Positions 1,760 through 9,527 of a DNA stretch of 11,266 bases are shown here, piece after piece (the stretch's first letter is position 1; every line of letters begins with the position of its first letter). The stretch comes from an uncultured archaeon (GTDB lineage Archaea; Asgardarchaeota; Lokiarchaeia; Sigyniarchaeales; Promethearchaeaceae). Location: contig CAYRPF010000065.1 of NCBI GenBank assembly GCA_964426185.1, positions 1-11,266 on the forward strand, in the 5' to 3' direction. The position numbers and the translations under genes were made by a program. Below the pieces are notes generated by a model. It made no database searches, was not told where the DNA came from, and was given only the letters and a program-made list of their open reading frames with translations.

Positions 1760-2677
1760 ATGAAAAGATACGATGCCACAAAACCCCGACATTTACCCCG
1801 ATTTCGTCTGATTGAACCGCACGTAATGCGTACAAGGGATGAATCCGTGGGTTACTTTCGAAATTCTTTGAATTTAACAAAGACCCTTCCTTTTATTGAA
1901 AAATATAATCGGGATCACAATTTTGATAAGGACACACGATTAACCCTATTTCATATAATTTTGTGTGCAACAGCGCGTACTTTTGCTTTATATCCACATT
2001 TGAATCGCTTTATTTCTGGTCGAAAATATTGGCAGCACAATCGACTTCAATTTTCATTTGTGGTAAAGAAAAAGCTGAAAGCCTATGCAAAAGAGACTTT
2101 TGCCAAAATCGATTTCGATCCTTTCGATACCCTAGAGATTGTCCGCAAAAGGGTTCACGCTTTTATTTATGAAGCCCGATCGGATAAAGGTAACGAAACT
2201 GAAAAGGAAATCGATGATTGGGGTAAATATCCTCGCTGGTTGTTGATGTTAGCCACAAAACTTTTTCGTACCTTAGAATTTTTTGGTAAACCGATTAAAA
2301 GCTTAACTAAGCCAGATCCTTTGTATTGTAGTGTAATTTTTGCAAATTTGGGGTCGGTTGGATTACCCGCTCCCTATCATCATATTTTTGAATGGGGTAA
2401 TGCAAGTTGGTTTATCACGGTGGGAAAAATCTATAAAAAACCCGTAGTAAATGAAGCAGGCGAAATAGTGGCACAAGATACAGTAGATTTAGGGATTACA
2501 TTGGATGAAAGGATCAGTGAAGGGCTATATTACGCTTTAGGTTTAAAGGCTATAACAGATTTCATTGAAAATCCCGAAAAATTGATTTCTCCACCCGAAA
2601 TTCCTGAGGAGAATTTATTAGAATTGGCTCTATTAGATCGCGAAAAGCGTTTAGGTAAATGGGATAAATTCATGTAG
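1760..2677 (+). CDS. Stand-alone 2-oxoacid dehydrogenase E2-like acyltransferase catalytic domain (no lipoyl or E3-binding domain)
   Basis: 305 aa with YPHLNR, ANLGSVG, ITVGKI and C-terminal TLDERISEG, which aligns with the DHRxxDG motif. AGGTG RBS upstream; T9 run downstream. Confidence 0.8.
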   Translation: MKRYDATKPRHLPRFRLIEPHVMRTRDESVGYFRNSLNLTKTLPFIEKYNRDHNFDKDTRLTLFHIILCATARTFALYPHLNRFISGRKYWQHNRLQFSFVVKKKLKAYAKETFAKIDFDPFDTLEIVRKRVHAFIYEARSDKGNETEKEIDDWGKYPRWLLMLATKLFRTLEFFGKPIKSLTKPDPLYCSVIFANLGSVGLPAPYHHIFEWGNASWFITVGKIYKKPVVNEAGEIVAQDTVDLGITLDERISEGLYYALGLKAITDFIENPEKLISPPEIPEENLLELALLDREKRLGKWDKFM

Positions 2678-2697
2678 GAATTTACTGAAGAAAATTC

Positions 2698-2706
2698 TTT
2701 TTTTTT
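2698..2706 (+). terminator. Oligo-T archaeal-type terminator candidate for the E2-like gene
   Basis: T9 run beginning 21 nt after the TAG stop, within a pyrimidine-rich tract. Confidence 0.5.
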
Positions 2707-2752
2707 CATTTTCACCATTTTATATCTAAAATTCCTTTTTCGCTAATTTGTA

Positions 2753-2779
2753 GTAGTATTGAATGATTTGATATACTAC
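2753..2779 (+). promoter_or_regulatory. Candidate K-loop hairpin (possible L7Ae site)
   Basis: Perfect 7-bp stem GTAGTAT/ATACTAC, then a U.U pair, tandem G.A/A.G pairs and a 7-nt loop ATGATTT. TTTTATAT lies at 2718-2725 upstream. Confidence 0.35.
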
Positions 2780-2820
2780 CATGCACCAAAGGGTTAACCG
2801 TAAAATAGTATTACAATGTA

Positions 2821-2922
2821 ATGGTTGAACATATTGGATTACGGGATGCGATCATGTTCTCAATCAAGCTAAGTGCAATTTTTGGTAAATATTTATTGAA
2901 GTTAATCGTAGAAAAGATTTAG
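2821..2922 (+). CDS. Candidate 33-aa small protein MVEHIGLRDAIMFSIKLSAIFGKYLLKLIVEKI
   Basis: ATG-TAG ORF translated by hand; hydrophobic/basic helical composition. No clear RBS and no recognised homology. Confidence 0.25.
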   Translation: MVEHIGLRDAIMFSIKLSAIFGKYLLKLIVEKI

Positions 2923-2933
2923 TAAAAAAGGGA

Positions 2934-3020
2934 TTAACTTAATGAAATTTGGATTTCTTCCATAATAGATATCCAATTTCTGAAATAATTACGAATAAAT
3001 GCGATGATTTGTTCAAACAT
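2934..3020 (-). CDS. Candidate 28-aa amphipathic small protein MFEQIIAFIRNYFRNWISIMEEIQISLS
   Basis: ATG-TAA ORF with GTGAT (SD-like) just upstream, BRE/TATA-like CGATAAA-CTTATAAAG at 3052-3067 (minus) and a T6 tract just after the stop. Hydrophobic residues show helical periodicity. Confidence 0.4.
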   Translation of the reverse strand: MFEQIIAFIRNYFRNWISIMEEIQISLS

Positions 3021-3067: not shown

Positions 3068-3254
3068 CAGTATTTTTCATGTTTTTCATGAAAAAAGCGC
3101 CAAATCCAGTTGAATTGTTTATAAGGTTTCAAATTTTAGATAGAAGAAAGTTTAATTAAAAGAAATTTTGAATAAACAAAAATGTCTTTGATGGATACAT
3201 ATATTATTCACAAATCAATTGTTCTGTCGAGAAAAAAGAGAAATGCTTTGAATT

Positions 3255-3824
3255 TTAGAAATTGGGCTTCCAAATACCTCGTTGAAAGAATTCATATATT
3301 ATTTCGGCTTCATGTAAAGCATCATCATATGCACGATGGATTTCAGTATAGTAAGTGTAATCCAAAAAAAGAAATCCCCAACATTCTTGGACACTTGGCC
3401 ATTTATACTCGGTTCCCTCAATTCGTGGGGGCAATTTAAAATATGGTGTTGCTTCTATCATAGGACATGGAAGCTCTCGGGGAATTTTTATTCCCTTGGC
3501 TTTCAAAAAACCGAAATCAAAAGCTTTATTGTACGTGGTAGCAGGAAATTTATTAAGGATTCGTTGAATTTTCGGGGCAACTTCATCCCAAGTGGGCGCT
3601 GCGAGTATTTTCTTAACGGTTAAAGTCGAATTTTGGAAAATCCAGCAATTTTCCAAGCGATCTGCCTCAAAACGAGTTAAAAATTCTGGTTCTTTACATA
3701 GAGAATCGAAAAGCTTGGAGATAAAATGTGTTTTTAAATCAAGCATAGCAATACCAATTTCGATTATTGTGCCATTCCGTGGAGTTGTTCCAGTTGTTTC
3801 AATATCCAAAACCGCAATTTGCAT
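3255..3824 (-). CDS. DEDDh (DnaQ-like) 3'-5' exonuclease
   Basis: ExoI LDIETTG, IIEIGI, ExoII YNKAFDFGFL and ExoIII HRAYDDA are all intact. Confidence 0.92.
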   Translation of the reverse strand: MQIAVLDIETTGTTPRNGTIIEIGIAMLDLKTHFISKLFDSLCKEPEFLTRFEADRLENCWIFQNSTLTVKKILAAPTWDEVAPKIQRILNKFPATTYNKAFDFGFLKAKGIKIPRELPCPMIEATPYFKLPPRIEGTEYKWPSVQECWGFLFLDYTYYTEIHRAYDDALHEAEIIYEFFQRGIWKPNF

Positions 3825-4110
3825 AAGATTGTTAAACCTTTACAGTGCTATCCAAAGGAGAAAAACTCATTGTCAGGGTTAAGTAGAAAGATAACCCCCA
3901 ATAGGATGATAAACAGAAATGCATAACATAAAAAATCCTTGCAGAAATTTCTTTCACTCATTATAATTCATCCAAAATTGTAGGGGAAGGATTCCTTTAA
4001 AAAAATTATAGAAAATTTCTCCACCGATTATTTTCCCCAAAATTTAATTTTTCAGTATTTGAAAAATAGTTAAAATTATTTTTATAAGGAGAGTTCTCTA
4101 AGAAGAAATC

Positions 4111-5832
4111 ATGCTGTTACTTAACCCACATAAGCTTGATCGCTTCTATCCAGATGAAATTTCCAAGCAAATCATGGAAAAAACCGTCCAATGGTTTGAA
4201 AATAAAGGAAAAATCAATCTATTAAACGATGACTTTGAAAGAGTCTGGTATCAAGATTTTCTGGATTTTCTTAAAGAAAACAAAATCTTTTACAAATTAT
4301 TAACCCCGGCTAAATATGGAGATGGTTCTACCAGGTGGGATACTTGGAGGAATTGCGAATTCAATGAAATTCTTGCCTTTTACGGCTTACATTACTGGTA
4401 TACTTGGCAAGTAACAATTTTAGGTTTGGGACCAATTTTCCTAAGCAAGAATGAAAAAGTGAAAAAAGAAACCGTCAGTTTGCTGAAAGAAGGAGGAATA
4501 TTTGCCTTTGGTCTTTCGGAAAAAGAACACGGAGCAGATATTTATAGTTCCGACATGATTCTCACAAAACACGGAGAGAATACCTACACTGCCAAAGGTT
4601 CTAAATATTATATCGGAAACGGAAATAAGGCTTCATTTGTCTCCGTTTTTGGTAAATCAAAACCTCCATTTTATCCCGAAGATAAGAAATACGGCAGTTA
4701 TGCCTTTTTTGTAGTAAAGACAGACCATGAAAAATATGAATTGGTCAGAAATTTGGTGGCTGTGAGCAGTTACGTGGCAGAATATCGTCTAAATGATTAT
4801 CCTATCACCGAAGATGAAATATTGGCTAAAGGTAGGGAGGCGTGGGATATGGCATTAAATACCGTAAACATTGGTAAGTTTAATCTCGGATTTGCTTCGA
4901 TTGGTATTGCTACCCATGCTTTTTATGAGGCTATTATTCATGCCAGTCATCGAATTCTATATGGAAAAGCCGTAACCGAATTTCCCCACATTCAATCCTT
5001 CTTTGTGGAAGCCTACTGTCGTTTGGTTTCGATGAAATTGTTTGCCCTGCGAGCGGCCGATTATTTCCGAGTTGCCACGCCGGAAGATAGACGTTATCTT
5101 CTTTATAACCCTATGGTTAAAATGTGGGTTACCCTGCAAGGAGAAGAAGTGATTGATTTGCTTTGGGATATCATTGCGGCTAAAGGATTTGAGAAAACTA
5201 CCTATTTTTCGTTAGCTACACGTGATATACGTGCTCTACCAAAGTTGGAAGGAACTGTCCATGTGAATATGGCTTTGGTTTTGAAATTCATGAAAAATTA
5301 CTTCTTTAATCATGCCGAATTTGAAGAAGTTCCCCAAGTTTCCGAGCCGAAAAACGATGATTTCTTGTTCGAACAACCTCCGGCTAAGAATTTGGGAAAG
5401 ATTCGATTTCATGATTATAGAAAAGTTTACAATATGTTTAATCTTCCCAACGTGAACCGTTTTAAGCGAAATATCAAATGGTTGAAACTTTTATTGATCG
5501 TGGCACCTCCTACTAAAGCGCAATCTCGGGATTTTGATTTTCTCTTGAATTTGGGCAAGCTGTTCACCTTGGTGATTTACGGGCAGTTAATTTTAGAGAA
5601 TACTAAGTATTACAAAATCTCCGATGATTTGTTAGAAGAAATATTTGATGTGCTTATTCGAGATTTTGCAAAATACGCCTTAGTATTGAAGAGTAAACCG
5701 CAATGTTCATGGAAACAGCGCTGGTTCTGCAGCCGGATGCTGTGCCGTCCAAAAGCCAACCGTGAACGCTTCAAGAGAGTGTGGGAAAAAGAAGTTTTTA
5801 CCTTAAAGGATCTCTATGAAATGAATCCTTGA
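4111..5832 (+). CDS. Acyl-CoA dehydrogenase family flavoprotein
   Basis: 573 aa with FAFGLSEKEHGAD, KGSKYYIGNG, ALNTVNIGKF and catalytic-Glu motif LPKLEGT. TTTATAAG about 25 nt upstream of the ATG suggests a leaderless transcript. Confidence 0.95.
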   Translation: MLLLNPHKLDRFYPDEISKQIMEKTVQWFENKGKINLLNDDFERVWYQDFLDFLKENKIFYKLLTPAKYGDGSTRWDTWRNCEFNEILAFYGLHYWYTWQVTILGLGPIFLSKNEKVKKETVSLLKEGGIFAFGLSEKEHGADIYSSDMILTKHGENTYTAKGSKYYIGNGNKASFVSVFGKSKPPFYPEDKKYGSYAFFVVKTDHEKYELVRNLVAVSSYVAEYRLNDYPITEDEILAKGREAWDMALNTVNIGKFNLGFASIGIATHAFYEAIIHASHRILYGKAVTEFPHIQSFFVEAYCRLVSMKLFALRAADYFRVATPEDRRYLLYNPMVKMWVTLQGEEVIDLLWDIIAAKGFEKTTYFSLATRDIRALPKLEGTVHVNMALVLKFMKNYFFNHAEFEEVPQVSEPKNDDFLFEQPPAKNLGKIRFHDYRKVYNMFNLPNVNRFKRNIKWLKLLLIVAPPTKAQSRDFDFLLNLGKLFTLVIYGQLILENTKYYKISDDLLEEIFDVLIRDFAKYALVLKSKPQCSWKQRWFCSRMLCRPKANRERFKRVWEKEVFTLKDLYEMNP

Positions 5833-5890: not shown

Positions 5891-8569
5891 TTAAAATCCT
5901 GCTCGATTGAATATATGAACGAAAAGTGAAGGCAGTATGTCGGTGGAAGGAACTATGTGATGTTCTACAGTAAGATATTCTTGAAAAATATTATAAATCT
6001 TTCTATCTAAGGGCTCCGTGTTTAAGATATGCATGCTTACATGAAAACGCTTTAAATTTTTTAATATCTGCCTTATTTTGGTGGGATCATCATCAAGAGC
6101 AAGATCAGAAAAGAGCAATATCAAATACCGATTGTTTATATCCCTCTCTTCAATTTGTTCCTTAAGATATTGAAGTGTACTTTCGATCTGGGTTCCTCCT
6201 TCAGCAACACAATCCAAAATTGACGCCACCAATTGATCGATAGGATAAGAATCTGAAAACTTCTTGATATTATACATGGCAGAATCAAAAAATGTTAGGT
6301 CGAAATCTTCTTTGGGTAAAAAATAAGTCATCATTGCGACAGCGTAGGTCGCGAAGGTTAATTTGTTTCCTTCCATAGATCCGGATTTATCTAAAATAAG
6401 AAGAACTTTTAGGGTATTTCCCCTATTACGTTGGCATAATATATCAGATGGTTGAATATATTTCGAGTTTTTCCCTTGTTCTATTAGATTATCCAGAGTT
6501 GCCTTAATTGATACATTTTCCATAGGATCTCCTGGGCGGTACGGCCGTAAATCTTGATTTGAAGGTTTAAATCCCTGTTTAATTCGTCCCATTTGGGATT
6601 TTACCATAAAAACTGCTTGATCGACCACAACTTGCTGCAAAATTTTATGTAAGTGGGTTTTAATTTTAGGATCAATTTGATCGCGAGAAAGATACCATTC
6701 TTTCAAGAGATTTTCCCCAGAAGCGCGCCGGATACCTTGGAAAAACAATGAATTTAAGCCAGGATCATTTTGTTGAGCCACATAATTGGCGGTTTCTTTA
6801 AGAGAATATTGGGATAATGCACTTAGAATGGATGAATTTTGCATTTTGTATCCATTTTGGATGAGTTCTTGAGTTTGTCGGGCATTGGGTTGATATTGCT
6901 GAAATTTTTGGGTATATGCCCCCAAATTATCCAAATTTTGAGAAATCATATCTTTTACTGCTTGATGAGGGGCTTGAAGAAGTGCTTCTAGATTTTTGGC
7001 ATCCATTCCCTTTTCCAAAGCCATTTGTTGGACTTTCTTTCGATCAAAAGGGATTTGCTCTCTAATAAATTCGGAGAGTTGGCTGGCAAACTCATCTGCA
7101 TTGCTTGAATTTTCTAAAATCTGTGAGGTTATTTTCTGAGTTAAGTTCTTCCTAAACTTTTCCAATTGATGCTTTTTTTCAAGAGTTACCGGCTTCTGCT
7201 TAGGAGGAGAAAGAATTTTAGAGAGAAAACTCTGCAGTTGAGATTGTGAGAGTGTGTTAAGGAAAGTTTTCTGATGTTCGGGAAGTAATTGTTTTTGTAT
7301 TTGAGAGATTGAACTTTTCTTTGAGAGTATAAATTCAGCCTGGAGTCGATTTTGAATTTTCGTAACTTGATCCGAAAGGGGATTTTTGCTTGTATGTTTG
7401 TATTCCTTATTGAATTGAGATTTGTTTGGGGTTTGAGATTTGTTTGGGAATTCAGATTTGTTTGAAATATGAGATTTTTCAAGATCTTGGATGCTGGACT
7501 GGAGTGAATTCAATATCTCCGATTGTTGGTCTGGGTTCAATTGGGTGATTTTGGATTCAATTACAGATAAATCCGCTGAAGAAAGATTATCAAGAAGGTT
7601 TTGGGGCGGTGCCCGAGACATTTCGCTTTCTTGGAGAAATTCCAGGTAATCTTCCCATTTCGTCAGCGATTGAAGCGTATCTTGAATCATCTTCTCCAAA
7701 ATTCGATCTTCAAGTTGTAAATTTTCCAAATTTCTCAATACAGCGCCTAGTTTTACCTGATTTTCTTTTCTCCTTTCCTTTTCTCTTTGCTCCTTCATCC
7801 TTCGGAGAGTTGTTGTATTCTTTCCGTTATCTGCATTCTTTTTGTTATCTACATTTTTTCCGTTATCCGTATTCCTTCGGTTCTTTGTATTCCTATGATC
7901 TTCTAAATTGCTTAGATTTTCCTTGTTTTTTTGGCTTTCTGGAATTACATTCTGTGGATATTGTTGCTTTAGTAGCTGTTTAAATCGATTCTGCAAATCT
8001 TCATAACGTTCTAACAGTGCATCCGAGTAAAGTTTCAAAGAAGGATCGGATATTTCTTCTAACTTTCCTTCTAATATACCGCGGCTGTGCAAGAATTGAA
8101 TATCCTTGAGAGATAAATCATTTTTTATGGATTCAAAAATCTCTTCTATCATCTTCAACGGATCTTTGAAGATTTCTTTATTTGCATGTAGTAGTTTATC
8201 TATGATATCAACCCGTTTTAAGTAATCTGCCCCAAAATTTTTCAAAGTTAACAATTGTTCGTATGAACTGTAGGTTATTACTTCACGTAAGGAGATTATT
8301 TTTTCATTCAAGGCACTCATCAAGAGTTCGTGGGCAATTTCGTAGGCTGCAGATTGATCTTCGAAAAAAGTGGTGTGAATACATGCTTCCAGCAAATCTT
8401 GAGCAGTAATTTTTTTTGTTCGCAGATATCGTGCAAAAAGAAATTGGTTGATTGAAGTTCCTTGCCGGATACTGGGTGGAGATTGGATAGAAGCATGTCT
8501 TCTCATACGTTGGATAAAAACAGAAATGAATTCTCCCAGATCCAGTGGTAACCCATAACTACCCATCAT
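5891..8569 (-). CDS. Large vWA (MIDAS) domain protein, MoxR partner; N-terminal AAA-lid-like segment and long helical/low-complexity linker
   Basis: C-terminal LILDKSGSM (DxSxS), GGT and LFSD MIDAS elements, preceded by RPYRPGD. Lies 34 nt downstream of the co-oriented MoxR gene. Confidence 0.9.
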   Translation of the reverse strand: MMGSYGLPLDLGEFISVFIQRMRRHASIQSPPSIRQGTSINQFLFARYLRTKKITAQDLLEACIHTTFFEDQSAAYEIAHELLMSALNEKIISLREVITYSSYEQLLTLKNFGADYLKRVDIIDKLLHANKEIFKDPLKMIEEIFESIKNDLSLKDIQFLHSRGILEGKLEEISDPSLKLYSDALLERYEDLQNRFKQLLKQQYPQNVIPESQKNKENLSNLEDHRNTKNRRNTDNGKNVDNKKNADNGKNTTTLRRMKEQREKERRKENQVKLGAVLRNLENLQLEDRILEKMIQDTLQSLTKWEDYLEFLQESEMSRAPPQNLLDNLSSADLSVIESKITQLNPDQQSEILNSLQSSIQDLEKSHISNKSEFPNKSQTPNKSQFNKEYKHTSKNPLSDQVTKIQNRLQAEFILSKKSSISQIQKQLLPEHQKTFLNTLSQSQLQSFLSKILSPPKQKPVTLEKKHQLEKFRKNLTQKITSQILENSSNADEFASQLSEFIREQIPFDRKKVQQMALEKGMDAKNLEALLQAPHQAVKDMISQNLDNLGAYTQKFQQYQPNARQTQELIQNGYKMQNSSILSALSQYSLKETANYVAQQNDPGLNSLFFQGIRRASGENLLKEWYLSRDQIDPKIKTHLHKILQQVVVDQAVFMVKSQMGRIKQGFKPSNQDLRPYRPGDPMENVSIKATLDNLIEQGKNSKYIQPSDILCQRNRGNTLKVLLILDKSGSMEGNKLTFATYAVAMMTYFLPKEDFDLTFFDSAMYNIKKFSDSYPIDQLVASILDCVAEGGTQIESTLQYLKEQIEERDINNRYLILLFSDLALDDDPTKIRQILKNLKRFHVSMHILNTEPLDRKIYNIFQEYLTVEHHIVPSTDILPSLFVHIFNRAGF
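7417..7470. repeat. 3 x 18-nt in-frame tandem repeat within the vWA gene
   Basis: Units gagatttgtttggggttt / gagatttgtttgggaatt / cagatttgtttgaaatat; encode (H)ISNKSEFPNKSQTPNKS. Confidence 0.85.
7818..7889. repeat. 4 x 18-nt degenerate in-frame tandem repeat within the vWA gene
   Basis: Units ttctttccgttatctgca / ttctttttgttatctaca / ttttttccgttatccgta / ttccttcggttctttgta; encode TKNRRN-TDNGKN-VDNKKN-ADNGKN. Confidence 0.85.
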
Positions 8570-8603
8570 TTTGCGCCTGTTACTTTTTTCCTTATTTTTA
8601 CCG

Positions 8604-9527
8604 TTAATTTTTACCGTTATTCCATGCTTTTAGCACAATTTCATCAATCATCTGCAAAGGCGTGATGCTAGGGTTGAATTCTAAATTTTGGATCAGAATC
8701 AAACTCGCCACCTCTTTGAAATCCTTCAGGTTGGGTTCACGATTAAGCCGACGGACGCGCTCTCCTAATAATTTTGCAAATCCTATAGAAGTTCGAATTG
8801 ACGCGGGTTTCGTTATACCAAGGGTTGTACGGGTCGCAGTGATGATTTTGAGAACTGTTTCTAATGCAGATTCGGAAAGATTTAATTCCGGGCAATTCAC
8901 TTTGATGATTTTCAATTCAACTTCTTTTTTAGGATATTCGAGTGTAATCCATACGCGTATCCTATCTTTGAATGCTTCAGGTAAAACCCGAGTGCCCCGT
9001 AAATCACTGGGATTCATGGCAGCTATGAAATAAAATTTCTCATCCAATTCAATCCAAGTTTTTAATTGGGGGATATATAGACGACGCTCTTCCAAAGCAT
9101 CCAAAAGTGCGTTTAGAACATATTCTTCTCCCCGATTCACTTCATTGGCAAAAAATATCCGCCCTTCTACTGCTGCTAAAGTAAAAGGTCCTGGAATAAA
9201 AGAATCAATATCATAACCTAATTTAAACACCAAAGTGGGGTCGAAAGTGCCGATCAAAGAACTCGGTCGAATCAAATCACTGAAGGTCACCCATGAAAAA
9301 CCTCTATCATGATCCTCTGCAAATTTACGACACAGTGCGGTTTTTCCCGAACCTACCGGCCCTACTATTCCAGCATAAAGTCCTGCATTATAAGCATCCA
9401 AGAGCGTTTCATAGGCTTGTTTATATTGACCTTCCAATATTAATGGAGTAATTTGTTGCTCTCCGCTGAGCTGATGTTGAGTGAATTTCTGGGCAAAACT
9501 CGGAGATATATTCTTGAGATCTGTCAT
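8604..9527 (-). CDS. MoxR-family AAA+ ATPase
   Basis: Walker A GPVGSGKT, LIG...F.PGP, Walker B region IFFANEVNR, sensor I AAMNP, Arg finger LPEAFKDR, EYP and sensor II SIR. Confidence 0.92.
   Translation of the reverse strand: MTDLKNISPSFAQKFTQHQLSGEQQITPLILEGQYKQAYETLLDAYNAGLYAGIVGPVGSGKTALCRKFAEDHDRGFSWVTFSDLIRPSSLIGTFDPTLVFKLGYDIDSFIPGPFTLAAVEGRIFFANEVNRGEEYVLNALLDALEERRLYIPQLKTWIELDEKFYFIAAMNPSDLRGTRVLPEAFKDRIRVWITLEYPKKEVELKIIKVNCPELNLSESALETVLKIITATRTTLGITKPASIRTSIGFAKLLGERVRRLNREPNLKDFKEVASLILIQNLEFNPSITPLQMIDEIVLKAWNNGKN

Follow-up and report, generated by a model that had tools for sequence, protein, structure and literature searches.

The MoxR–VWA locus and its lid-like module

The stretch of DNA considered here (hereafter the window; 11,266 nt) is one contig, CAYRPF010000065.1, of a 3.26-Mb Asgard archaeal assembly (GCA_964426185.1); homologues of its proteins carry the names Promethearchaeota or Lokiarchaeia. 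Its minus strand carries the gene of a 307-aa MoxR-class AAA+ ATPase (P0002; 8604..9527; Pfam AAA_5 2.7e-19, AAA_3 4.3e-14) and, 34 bp beyond the MoxR stop codon (spacer 8570..8603) and in a different frame, the gene of an 892-aa protein (P0001; 5891..8569), matched at residues 688–853 by Pfam VWA_CoxE (4.1e-10) and VWA_2 (3.1e-06). Judged from profile comparisons, residues ~6–93 of the VWA protein are a homologue of the AAA+ lid, the small α-helical subdomain of the ATPase; the relationship holds at the level of the two families and not for the single pair of sequences.

A preliminary description of the window had aligned residues 11–50 of the VWA protein (8420–8539, minus strand) without gaps to MoxR residues 221–260 (8748–8867, minus strand), and both the positions and the 11 identities in 40 columns are correct. 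So are its further particulars, namely the shared R-x4-I-x2-P-x-S-I-R (R23 to R35 in the VWA protein, R233 to R245 in MoxR), the DxxE pair reached after a one-residue gap (D58xxE61 and D269xxE272), and the lack of a Walker A/B domain in the VWA protein, which has neither a P-loop nor an AAA Pfam domain. At the DNA level, the two segments share 39 of 120 nucleotides and 9 of 40 third codon positions, the latter being the chance level, and any copying of the lid was therefore not a recent duplication.

The evidence for homology comes from the families. Residues 1–200 of the VWA protein, used in a full HMMER search of 1.84 billion cluster representatives, retrieved 55 proteins, whose common conserved core spans residues ~7–90. 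Within it, P32, R35, D58 and Q72 are invariant, and F14, F18, R23, S33, A75 and A79 nearly so. When the module profile, built from 56 sequences, was compared by hhalign with that of the MoxR lid (residues 196–307; 8607..8942, minus strand), built from 121 ATPase homologues, the two matched with a probability of 96.3% and a score of 53.9 over 56 columns, in the very register of the preliminary description. Among the controls, the AAA core scored 12.0, the reversed lid 10.9 and 60 column-shuffled lids on average 11.3 (sd, standard deviation, 2.0; maximum 15.7). Set against these values of at most 15.7, the score of 53.9 bears out the earlier proposal that the protein starts with an isolated AAA+ lid-like segment related to its cognate lid. 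The match persists with a probability of 96.2% after removal of the window's own clade. Moreover, it is specific in both directions, as the lid profile picks residues 4–63 out of the whole 892-aa protein (P=2.3e-4) and the module profile picks residues 222–276 out of the ATPase (P=5e-4).

The conserved residues of the lid recur in the module. R233, S243 and R245 are present in 121 of 121 MoxR lids, and R257 and R260 in 120 of 121; their module counterparts are R23 (98%), S33 (95%), R35 (100%), R47 (82%) and R50 (93%). By alignment, the invariant R245 (8793..8795, minus strand) is the sensor-II arginine, pairing with the arginine of the AAA_lid_2 GPRA motif, and R35 (8465..8467, minus strand) is its counterpart within P32-S33-x-R35. 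Conservation of S-x-R in the homologues, which the preliminary description had named as a check on its proposal, is thus borne out (S33 95%, R35 100%). Similarity to bona fide lids at the profile level, the sensor-II arginine, its S-x-R context and its place at the start of the third helix are all found in the module.

We also compared both profiles with canonical Asgard MoxR lids (Pfam AAA_lid_2) drawn from 30 loci. The cognate MoxR lid matches these with a probability of 96.4% and a score of 54.7 over 77 columns, while the module matches them weakly and in the same register (score 19.3, P=0.0077). As judged from 53.9 versus 54.7, the distance between the module and its partner's lid is similar to that between the partner's lid and the standard MoxR lid, and from 53.9 versus 19.3 the module is nearer to the partner's lid than to the standard one; these comparisons cover the cognate and AAA_lid_2 lids.

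AlphaFold2 (AF2) modelling of residues 1–200 from 34 sequences, with a mean predicted local distance difference test (pLDDT) of 90.9, folded the module (residues 6–93; 8291..8554, minus strand) into helices 11–24, 34–51, 56–65 and 69–93, with a second subdomain at 100–199. Such a compact helical bundle of ~70–90 residues is what is expected of an AAA+ lid, and the predicted fold of the N-terminus is lid-like. In a protein-language-model search of the ESM atlas, AAA_lid_8 and AAA_lid_2 clusters came up as weak leads. The predicted structure is in agreement with the profile result, yet is not proof of it.

In none of the 55 representatives does the module follow an AAA core, and in every one of them it begins within the first 33 residues. 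Given this extreme N-terminal start, together with the lack of Walker A and of any AAA Pfam domain, the module is an orphan lid and the protein is not an AAA+ protein: the P-loop α/β core that stands ahead of a genuine lid in the same chain is missing.

The partner ATPase and its linkage to the VWA gene

The ATPase has a Walker A motif (GPVGSGKT, residues 56–63; 9339..9362, minus strand), of which G56, P57, G59, G61, K62 and T63 are invariant in 121 homologues. At the Walker B position, it carries Asn128-Glu129 (ANE; 9141..9146, minus strand) instead of Asp-Glu, and this is the case in 121 of the 121 aligned subfamily members; N128-E129 aligns opposite the DE of midasin AAA modules. N172, R180, R189 and R245 are likewise invariant across the 121 homologues. 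The Asn-Glu Walker B is a hallmark of this MoxR subfamily, and may alter Mg/ATP handling. The closest solved single domains are 2R44, CbbQ (5C3C) and NorQ (9qhd/9qh4), a scan of family models gave partial similarity to GvpN, and homologues in the databases, from Promethearchaeota, Heimdallarchaeota, Myxococcales and Gemmataceae, carry the name MoxR-like ATPase.

The order MoxR then VWA is kept in five related loci (L002, L003, L004, L006, L008). In 15 of 20 further loci (L041–L060), a MoxR of the same subfamily (51–60% identical) lies directly upstream of the VWA gene; in four Gemmatales loci (L051, L052, L055, L057), no MoxR was found in the available upstream sequence (391–3000 bp). With its 34-bp spacer and the order conserved in related loci, the VWA protein has the adjacency to MoxR that is typical of adaptors of the NorD/CobT/CbbO kind.

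Layout of the VWA adaptor

Downstream of the lid-like module, the N-terminal region continues with a second helical subdomain (residues 100–203; 7961..8272, minus strand; AF2 helices 100–199, pLDDT ~80–94), which is conserved in the closer homologues P0004–P0011 only, and not in distant members. It is followed by a long K/N/Q/S/L-rich linker (residues 204–469; 7163..7960, minus strand), which by pLDDT and composition is partly disordered with helical stretches; in the full-length AF2 model (pLDDT 76), values fall below 50 at 212–251, 368–395 and 413–467. An N-domain (11–203) followed by such low-confidence stretches matches the long disordered linker of MoxR-associated VWA adaptors. The linker further contains an insertion at residues 201–268 (7766–7969, minus strand), a 67-residue N/K/D/R-rich low-complexity stretch (NRRNTDNGKNVDNKKNADNGKN...), which is missing in the two closest homologues, P0004 and P0005; the linker is evidently free to vary in length.

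The conserved middle domain (residues 470–660; 6590..7162, minus strand; pLDDT ~80–94) is all-helical, ends in a long helix (634–660) and has no Pfam match. W625 is invariant in it, and L569, G618 and L621 are nearly so. The long helix is joined to the first VWA strand by a Gly-containing tip, GRIKQGFKPSNQD (residues 661–673; 6551..6589, minus strand), with G661 and G666 invariant and pLDDT below 50 at 662–672; by analogy, it is a candidate counterpart of the NorD/CobT finger or shaft. [quoted passage not shown] Its MIDAS is intact, with the DxSxS residues D727, S729 and S731 (6377..6391, minus strand) completed by T793 and D822, all five invariant in 22 full-length homologues. A phmmer search of the whole protein against the PDB returned no match. 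The adaptor thus has the layout of the NorD/CobT/CbbO type, in which the N-domain leads via the linker and the helical middle region to a VWA domain, here one whose MIDAS is intact.

Probable origin and possible mode of action

We regard the 892-aa protein as the VWA adaptor of the adjacent MoxR, with an N-terminus that is an ancient copy of the ATPase lid and that, by analogy with NorQD and CobST, probably serves as the anchor on the ring; to this reading as a whole we assign a probability of about 0.62. The first ~90 residues are an ancient paralogous copy of the partner's lid without the P-loop core. The copy begins with the helix that leads up to sensor II and continues through the P-S-x-R loop and the sensor-II helix into the helices that follow. 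Long ago, a duplication of the 3′ lid-coding end of moxR would have placed it at the 5′ end of the neighbouring VWA gene. This is the simplest route, because the copy lies ~330 bp downstream of its original in the same operon, the lid of the ATPase is complete, no member of the family has a core, and the partner lid is the best match. A ChlD-type fusion that split or decayed is the less likely origin, as far as can be judged from a comparison with the cognate and AAA_lid_2 lids.

Lids natively pack on AAA+ cores and on one another's surroundings in the ring, which makes a lid plausible as an anchor. As an anchor or stator, the copy would attach peripherally to the MoxR hexamer, either on the small subdomain or next to it, with the VWA domain on the concave face and the finger-like tip in the pore. 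ATP-driven rotation of the ring would then stretch the linker and remodel a client bound at the MIDAS. These placements, and with them the docking of the lid on the ring that the preliminary description had suggested, are inferred from what is known of NorQD and CobST. In NorQD, the concave face of the hexamer carries the VWA domain, whose finger is in the pore, the NorD C-terminus is in contact with the post-sensor-1 loop (PMC13036017), and the NorD linker, unresolved in the structure, is stretched while the ring turns (PMC13036017; model in PMC9976466). In CobST, the N-domain of CobT lies peripherally on the small domain of CobS (bioRxiv 10.64898/2026.10.09.757910, 10.64898/2026.07.21.739949). 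The earlier suggestion that the long linker positions a distant MIDAS domain on substrates calls for correction, as in these systems the VWA domain is seated on the ring, with the finger in the pore, rather than being kept at a distance by the linker.

Several observations weigh against this interpretation. The raw pair of sequences is at chance level, since shuffled VWA proteins reach a median best 40-mer identity of 11 against MoxR (with shuffles of the N-terminus against the lid only, 11 of 40 is attained by ~3.5%); its BLOSUM62 sum is only 25, and BLASTP between the two proteins does not report it. Scanned against Pfam at E<=10, 24 module sequences matched none of the lid families and gave one stray hit to MDN1_4th (0.18); the module profile found nothing relevant, and no lid, among PDB sequences. 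A Foldseek comparison of the kind that the preliminary description had proposed, run with the 200-residue model against the PDB, gave nothing at E<=0.001. In addition, because the N-domains of NorD and CobT are not lid-like by sequence, the analogy with them is functional and not homologous.

Alternative explanations

Instead of anchoring the ring, the orphan lid could act as a pseudo-subunit or regulatory lid, occupying a lid-type site on a MoxR α/β domain, for instance at the spiral's seam, so that the invariant, sensor-II-like Arg35 touches the nucleotide in trans and the adaptor caps the ring or tunes its ATP hydrolysis. In its favour, P32, S33, R35, R23, R47 and R50 are as conserved in a copy without a core as in a real lid; moreover, the unusual invariant Asn-Glu Walker B of the MoxR subfamily could need extra regulation, and in NorQD the NorD finger opens the NorQ seam (PMC13036017). 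On the other hand, P-S-x-R may owe its conservation to a structural role, as a helix N-cap with a basic surface, MoxR retains its own complete lid and sensor II, and the N-domains of NorQD and CobST bind the outside of the small subdomain and not the nucleotide site. On balance, we find this role unlikely, and so too its more specific form, in which the lid lies at the ring seam, offers its arginine to the nucleotide in trans and lets the adaptor gate the Asn-Glu Walker B motor. If true, the latter would represent a novel mode of AAA+ ring control, in which the adaptor employs a borrowed piece of the motor.

The module might, alternatively, be the relic of a BchD/ChlD-like ancestor with an AAA–linker–VWA chain, which lost the α/β core and kept the lid. 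D subunits do resemble the adaptor, since their single chain starts with an AAA-derived N-terminus and runs through a long linker to a C-terminal MIDAS-VWA domain, and a clade-7 AAA+ ring is their partner. Yet no sequence precedes the module in any of the 55 representatives; among the cognate and canonical lids compared, the module is much closer to the lid of the neighbouring MoxR (53.9) than to the canonical one (19.3); the partner ATPase scores 22 bits to the Mg_chelatase ChlI/BchD-ChlD models, far below the BchD-ChlD cut-off, with AAA_5 and AAA_3 matching far better; and the name given at JGI stems from the VWA domain. This descent is therefore quite improbable. As a claim of membership, the comparison with chelatase D subunits made in the preliminary description fails, because no family member has an AAA α/β core.

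Chance or convergence, by which the module would be an Arg-rich helical bundle sharing no ancestry with AAA+ lids, is already disfavoured and the least credible, given that the profile score lies ~20 sd above the column-shuffled controls with one register and 5 of 5 Arg/Ser positions shared, that a weaker match to an independent lid family (AAA_lid_2) falls in the same register, and that the result holds with distant members only.

Relation to known systems

The protein resembles NorD, which with NorQ forms the iron-insertion chaperone of cNOR: both pairs join a MoxR-class AAA+ ATPase to a VWA protein in which a long disordered linker connects the N-domain to a MIDAS-VWA domain at the C-terminus (PMC13036017, PMC9976466; PDB 9qh4–9qhg). 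The NorD N-domain binds the small α-helical subdomain of its ATPase, and the adaptor's N-domain may, by analogy, do the same. The two systems nevertheless differ in that the N-domain is here a copy of the ATPase lid, whereas that of NorD, according to its description, lacks conservation across MoxR partners and is undetected by the module profile; N-domains of MoxR partners have been stated to be unrelated and variable (PMC9976466). The ATPase also belongs to another subfamily, scoring 22–28 bits to NorQ and having the Asn-Glu Walker B, and no nor genes are present in the window. CobS–CobT, the motor of aerobic cobaltochelatase, is similar in having a peripheral N-domain on the small AAA+ domain, a disordered linker and a VWA shaft/finger in the pore (the two CobST preprints cited above); the N-domain of CobT, however, holds an M48C-like domain with a β-sheet, unlike the all-helical lid copy, and Pfam found no cobN or other chelatase gene in the nine other window open reading frames (ORFs) scanned.

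D subunits of Mg-chelatase (BchD/ChlD) keep a whole degenerate AAA+ module, while the adaptor has the lid only, and its linker is K/N/Q/S-rich and not acidic or Pro-rich; an NCBIfam scan of the VWA protein gave no match to TIGR02031, the BchD-ChlD equivalog. CbbQ–CbbO, a Rubisco activase, differs in that the adaptor has no sequence match to solved chains and no Rubisco context is present. Midasin/Rea1 shares AAA_5-type modules and a distant MIDAS domain, the latter being among the Foldseek matches. It also tops the phmmer list for the ATPase, although its E-value sums several AAA modules; we rejected a special kinship with midasin, as its best single module reaches 20.6 bits versus 49 bits for the bacterial MoxR 2R44.

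The preliminary description had considered the architecture possibly undescribed. This does not hold for the layout of N-domain, linker and MIDAS-VWA, which has been published for NorD and CobT (PMC13036017, PMC9976466 and both CobST preprints). It does hold, within an incomplete coverage of the literature, for the lid-derived N-domain, which we found described for a MoxR partner in no paper. Hence, what is new is the proposed lid-derived anchor; for NorD and CobT, both the general N-domain/linker/VWA plan and an N-domain that docks on the lid of the ATPase were already known.

MoxR/VWA pairs are widespread, and few have been worked out (NorQD, CbbQO, CobST). How the variable adaptor N-domain recognises its own ring was left open in the papers on these pairs. 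An anchor derived from the lid of the motor would provide a concrete, testable hypothesis about the interface, with lid–lid or lid–core packing and a role for R35. It would also have a simple evolutionary explanation, namely that the gene after moxR received a duplicate of the moxR 3′ end. With members in Asgard archaea, Myxococcota and Gemmatales, the family is also an accessible model of an uncharacterised remodelling machine. The general picture of MoxR/VWA mechanisms is unchanged by the finding.

Distribution and genomic surroundings

Matches to the adaptor are present in 39 of 41 related genomes, many of them proteins of 830–870 aa with both module and VWA domain. In species-representative genomes, the module occurs in Promethearchaeota, Heimdallarchaeota, Kariarchaeota, Myxococcota (Kofleriaceae, Archangium), Gemmatales and one Alcaligenaceae metagenome-assembled genome. 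That Asgard archaea, Myxococcota and Gemmatales have this family and its MoxR (ATPase 51–60% identical) in common is suggestive of transfer from one domain to another. In the databases, adaptor homologues are named hypothetical, VWA domain-containing or 'Mg-chelatase subunit ChlD', the last name resting on the VWA domain.

A second MoxR (336 aa), followed by a short CoxE-like VWA protein, is encoded in the same genome (L061, G000:C17:8500-13000; ORFs 1991–3001 and 3142–4113). The N-terminus of the second VWA protein shows no similarity to the lid (hhalign score 9.2), and a lid-like start is thus not general to VWA_CoxE proteins.

ARAGORN found no tRNA anywhere in the window, though an oddly interrupted tRNA could escape such a scan. 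The neighbours of the pair are an acyl-CoA dehydrogenase, an RNase T-like exonuclease, an SPFH protein and an orotidine monophosphate (OMP) decarboxylase-like protein, which are not conserved partners of the MoxR–VWA pair.

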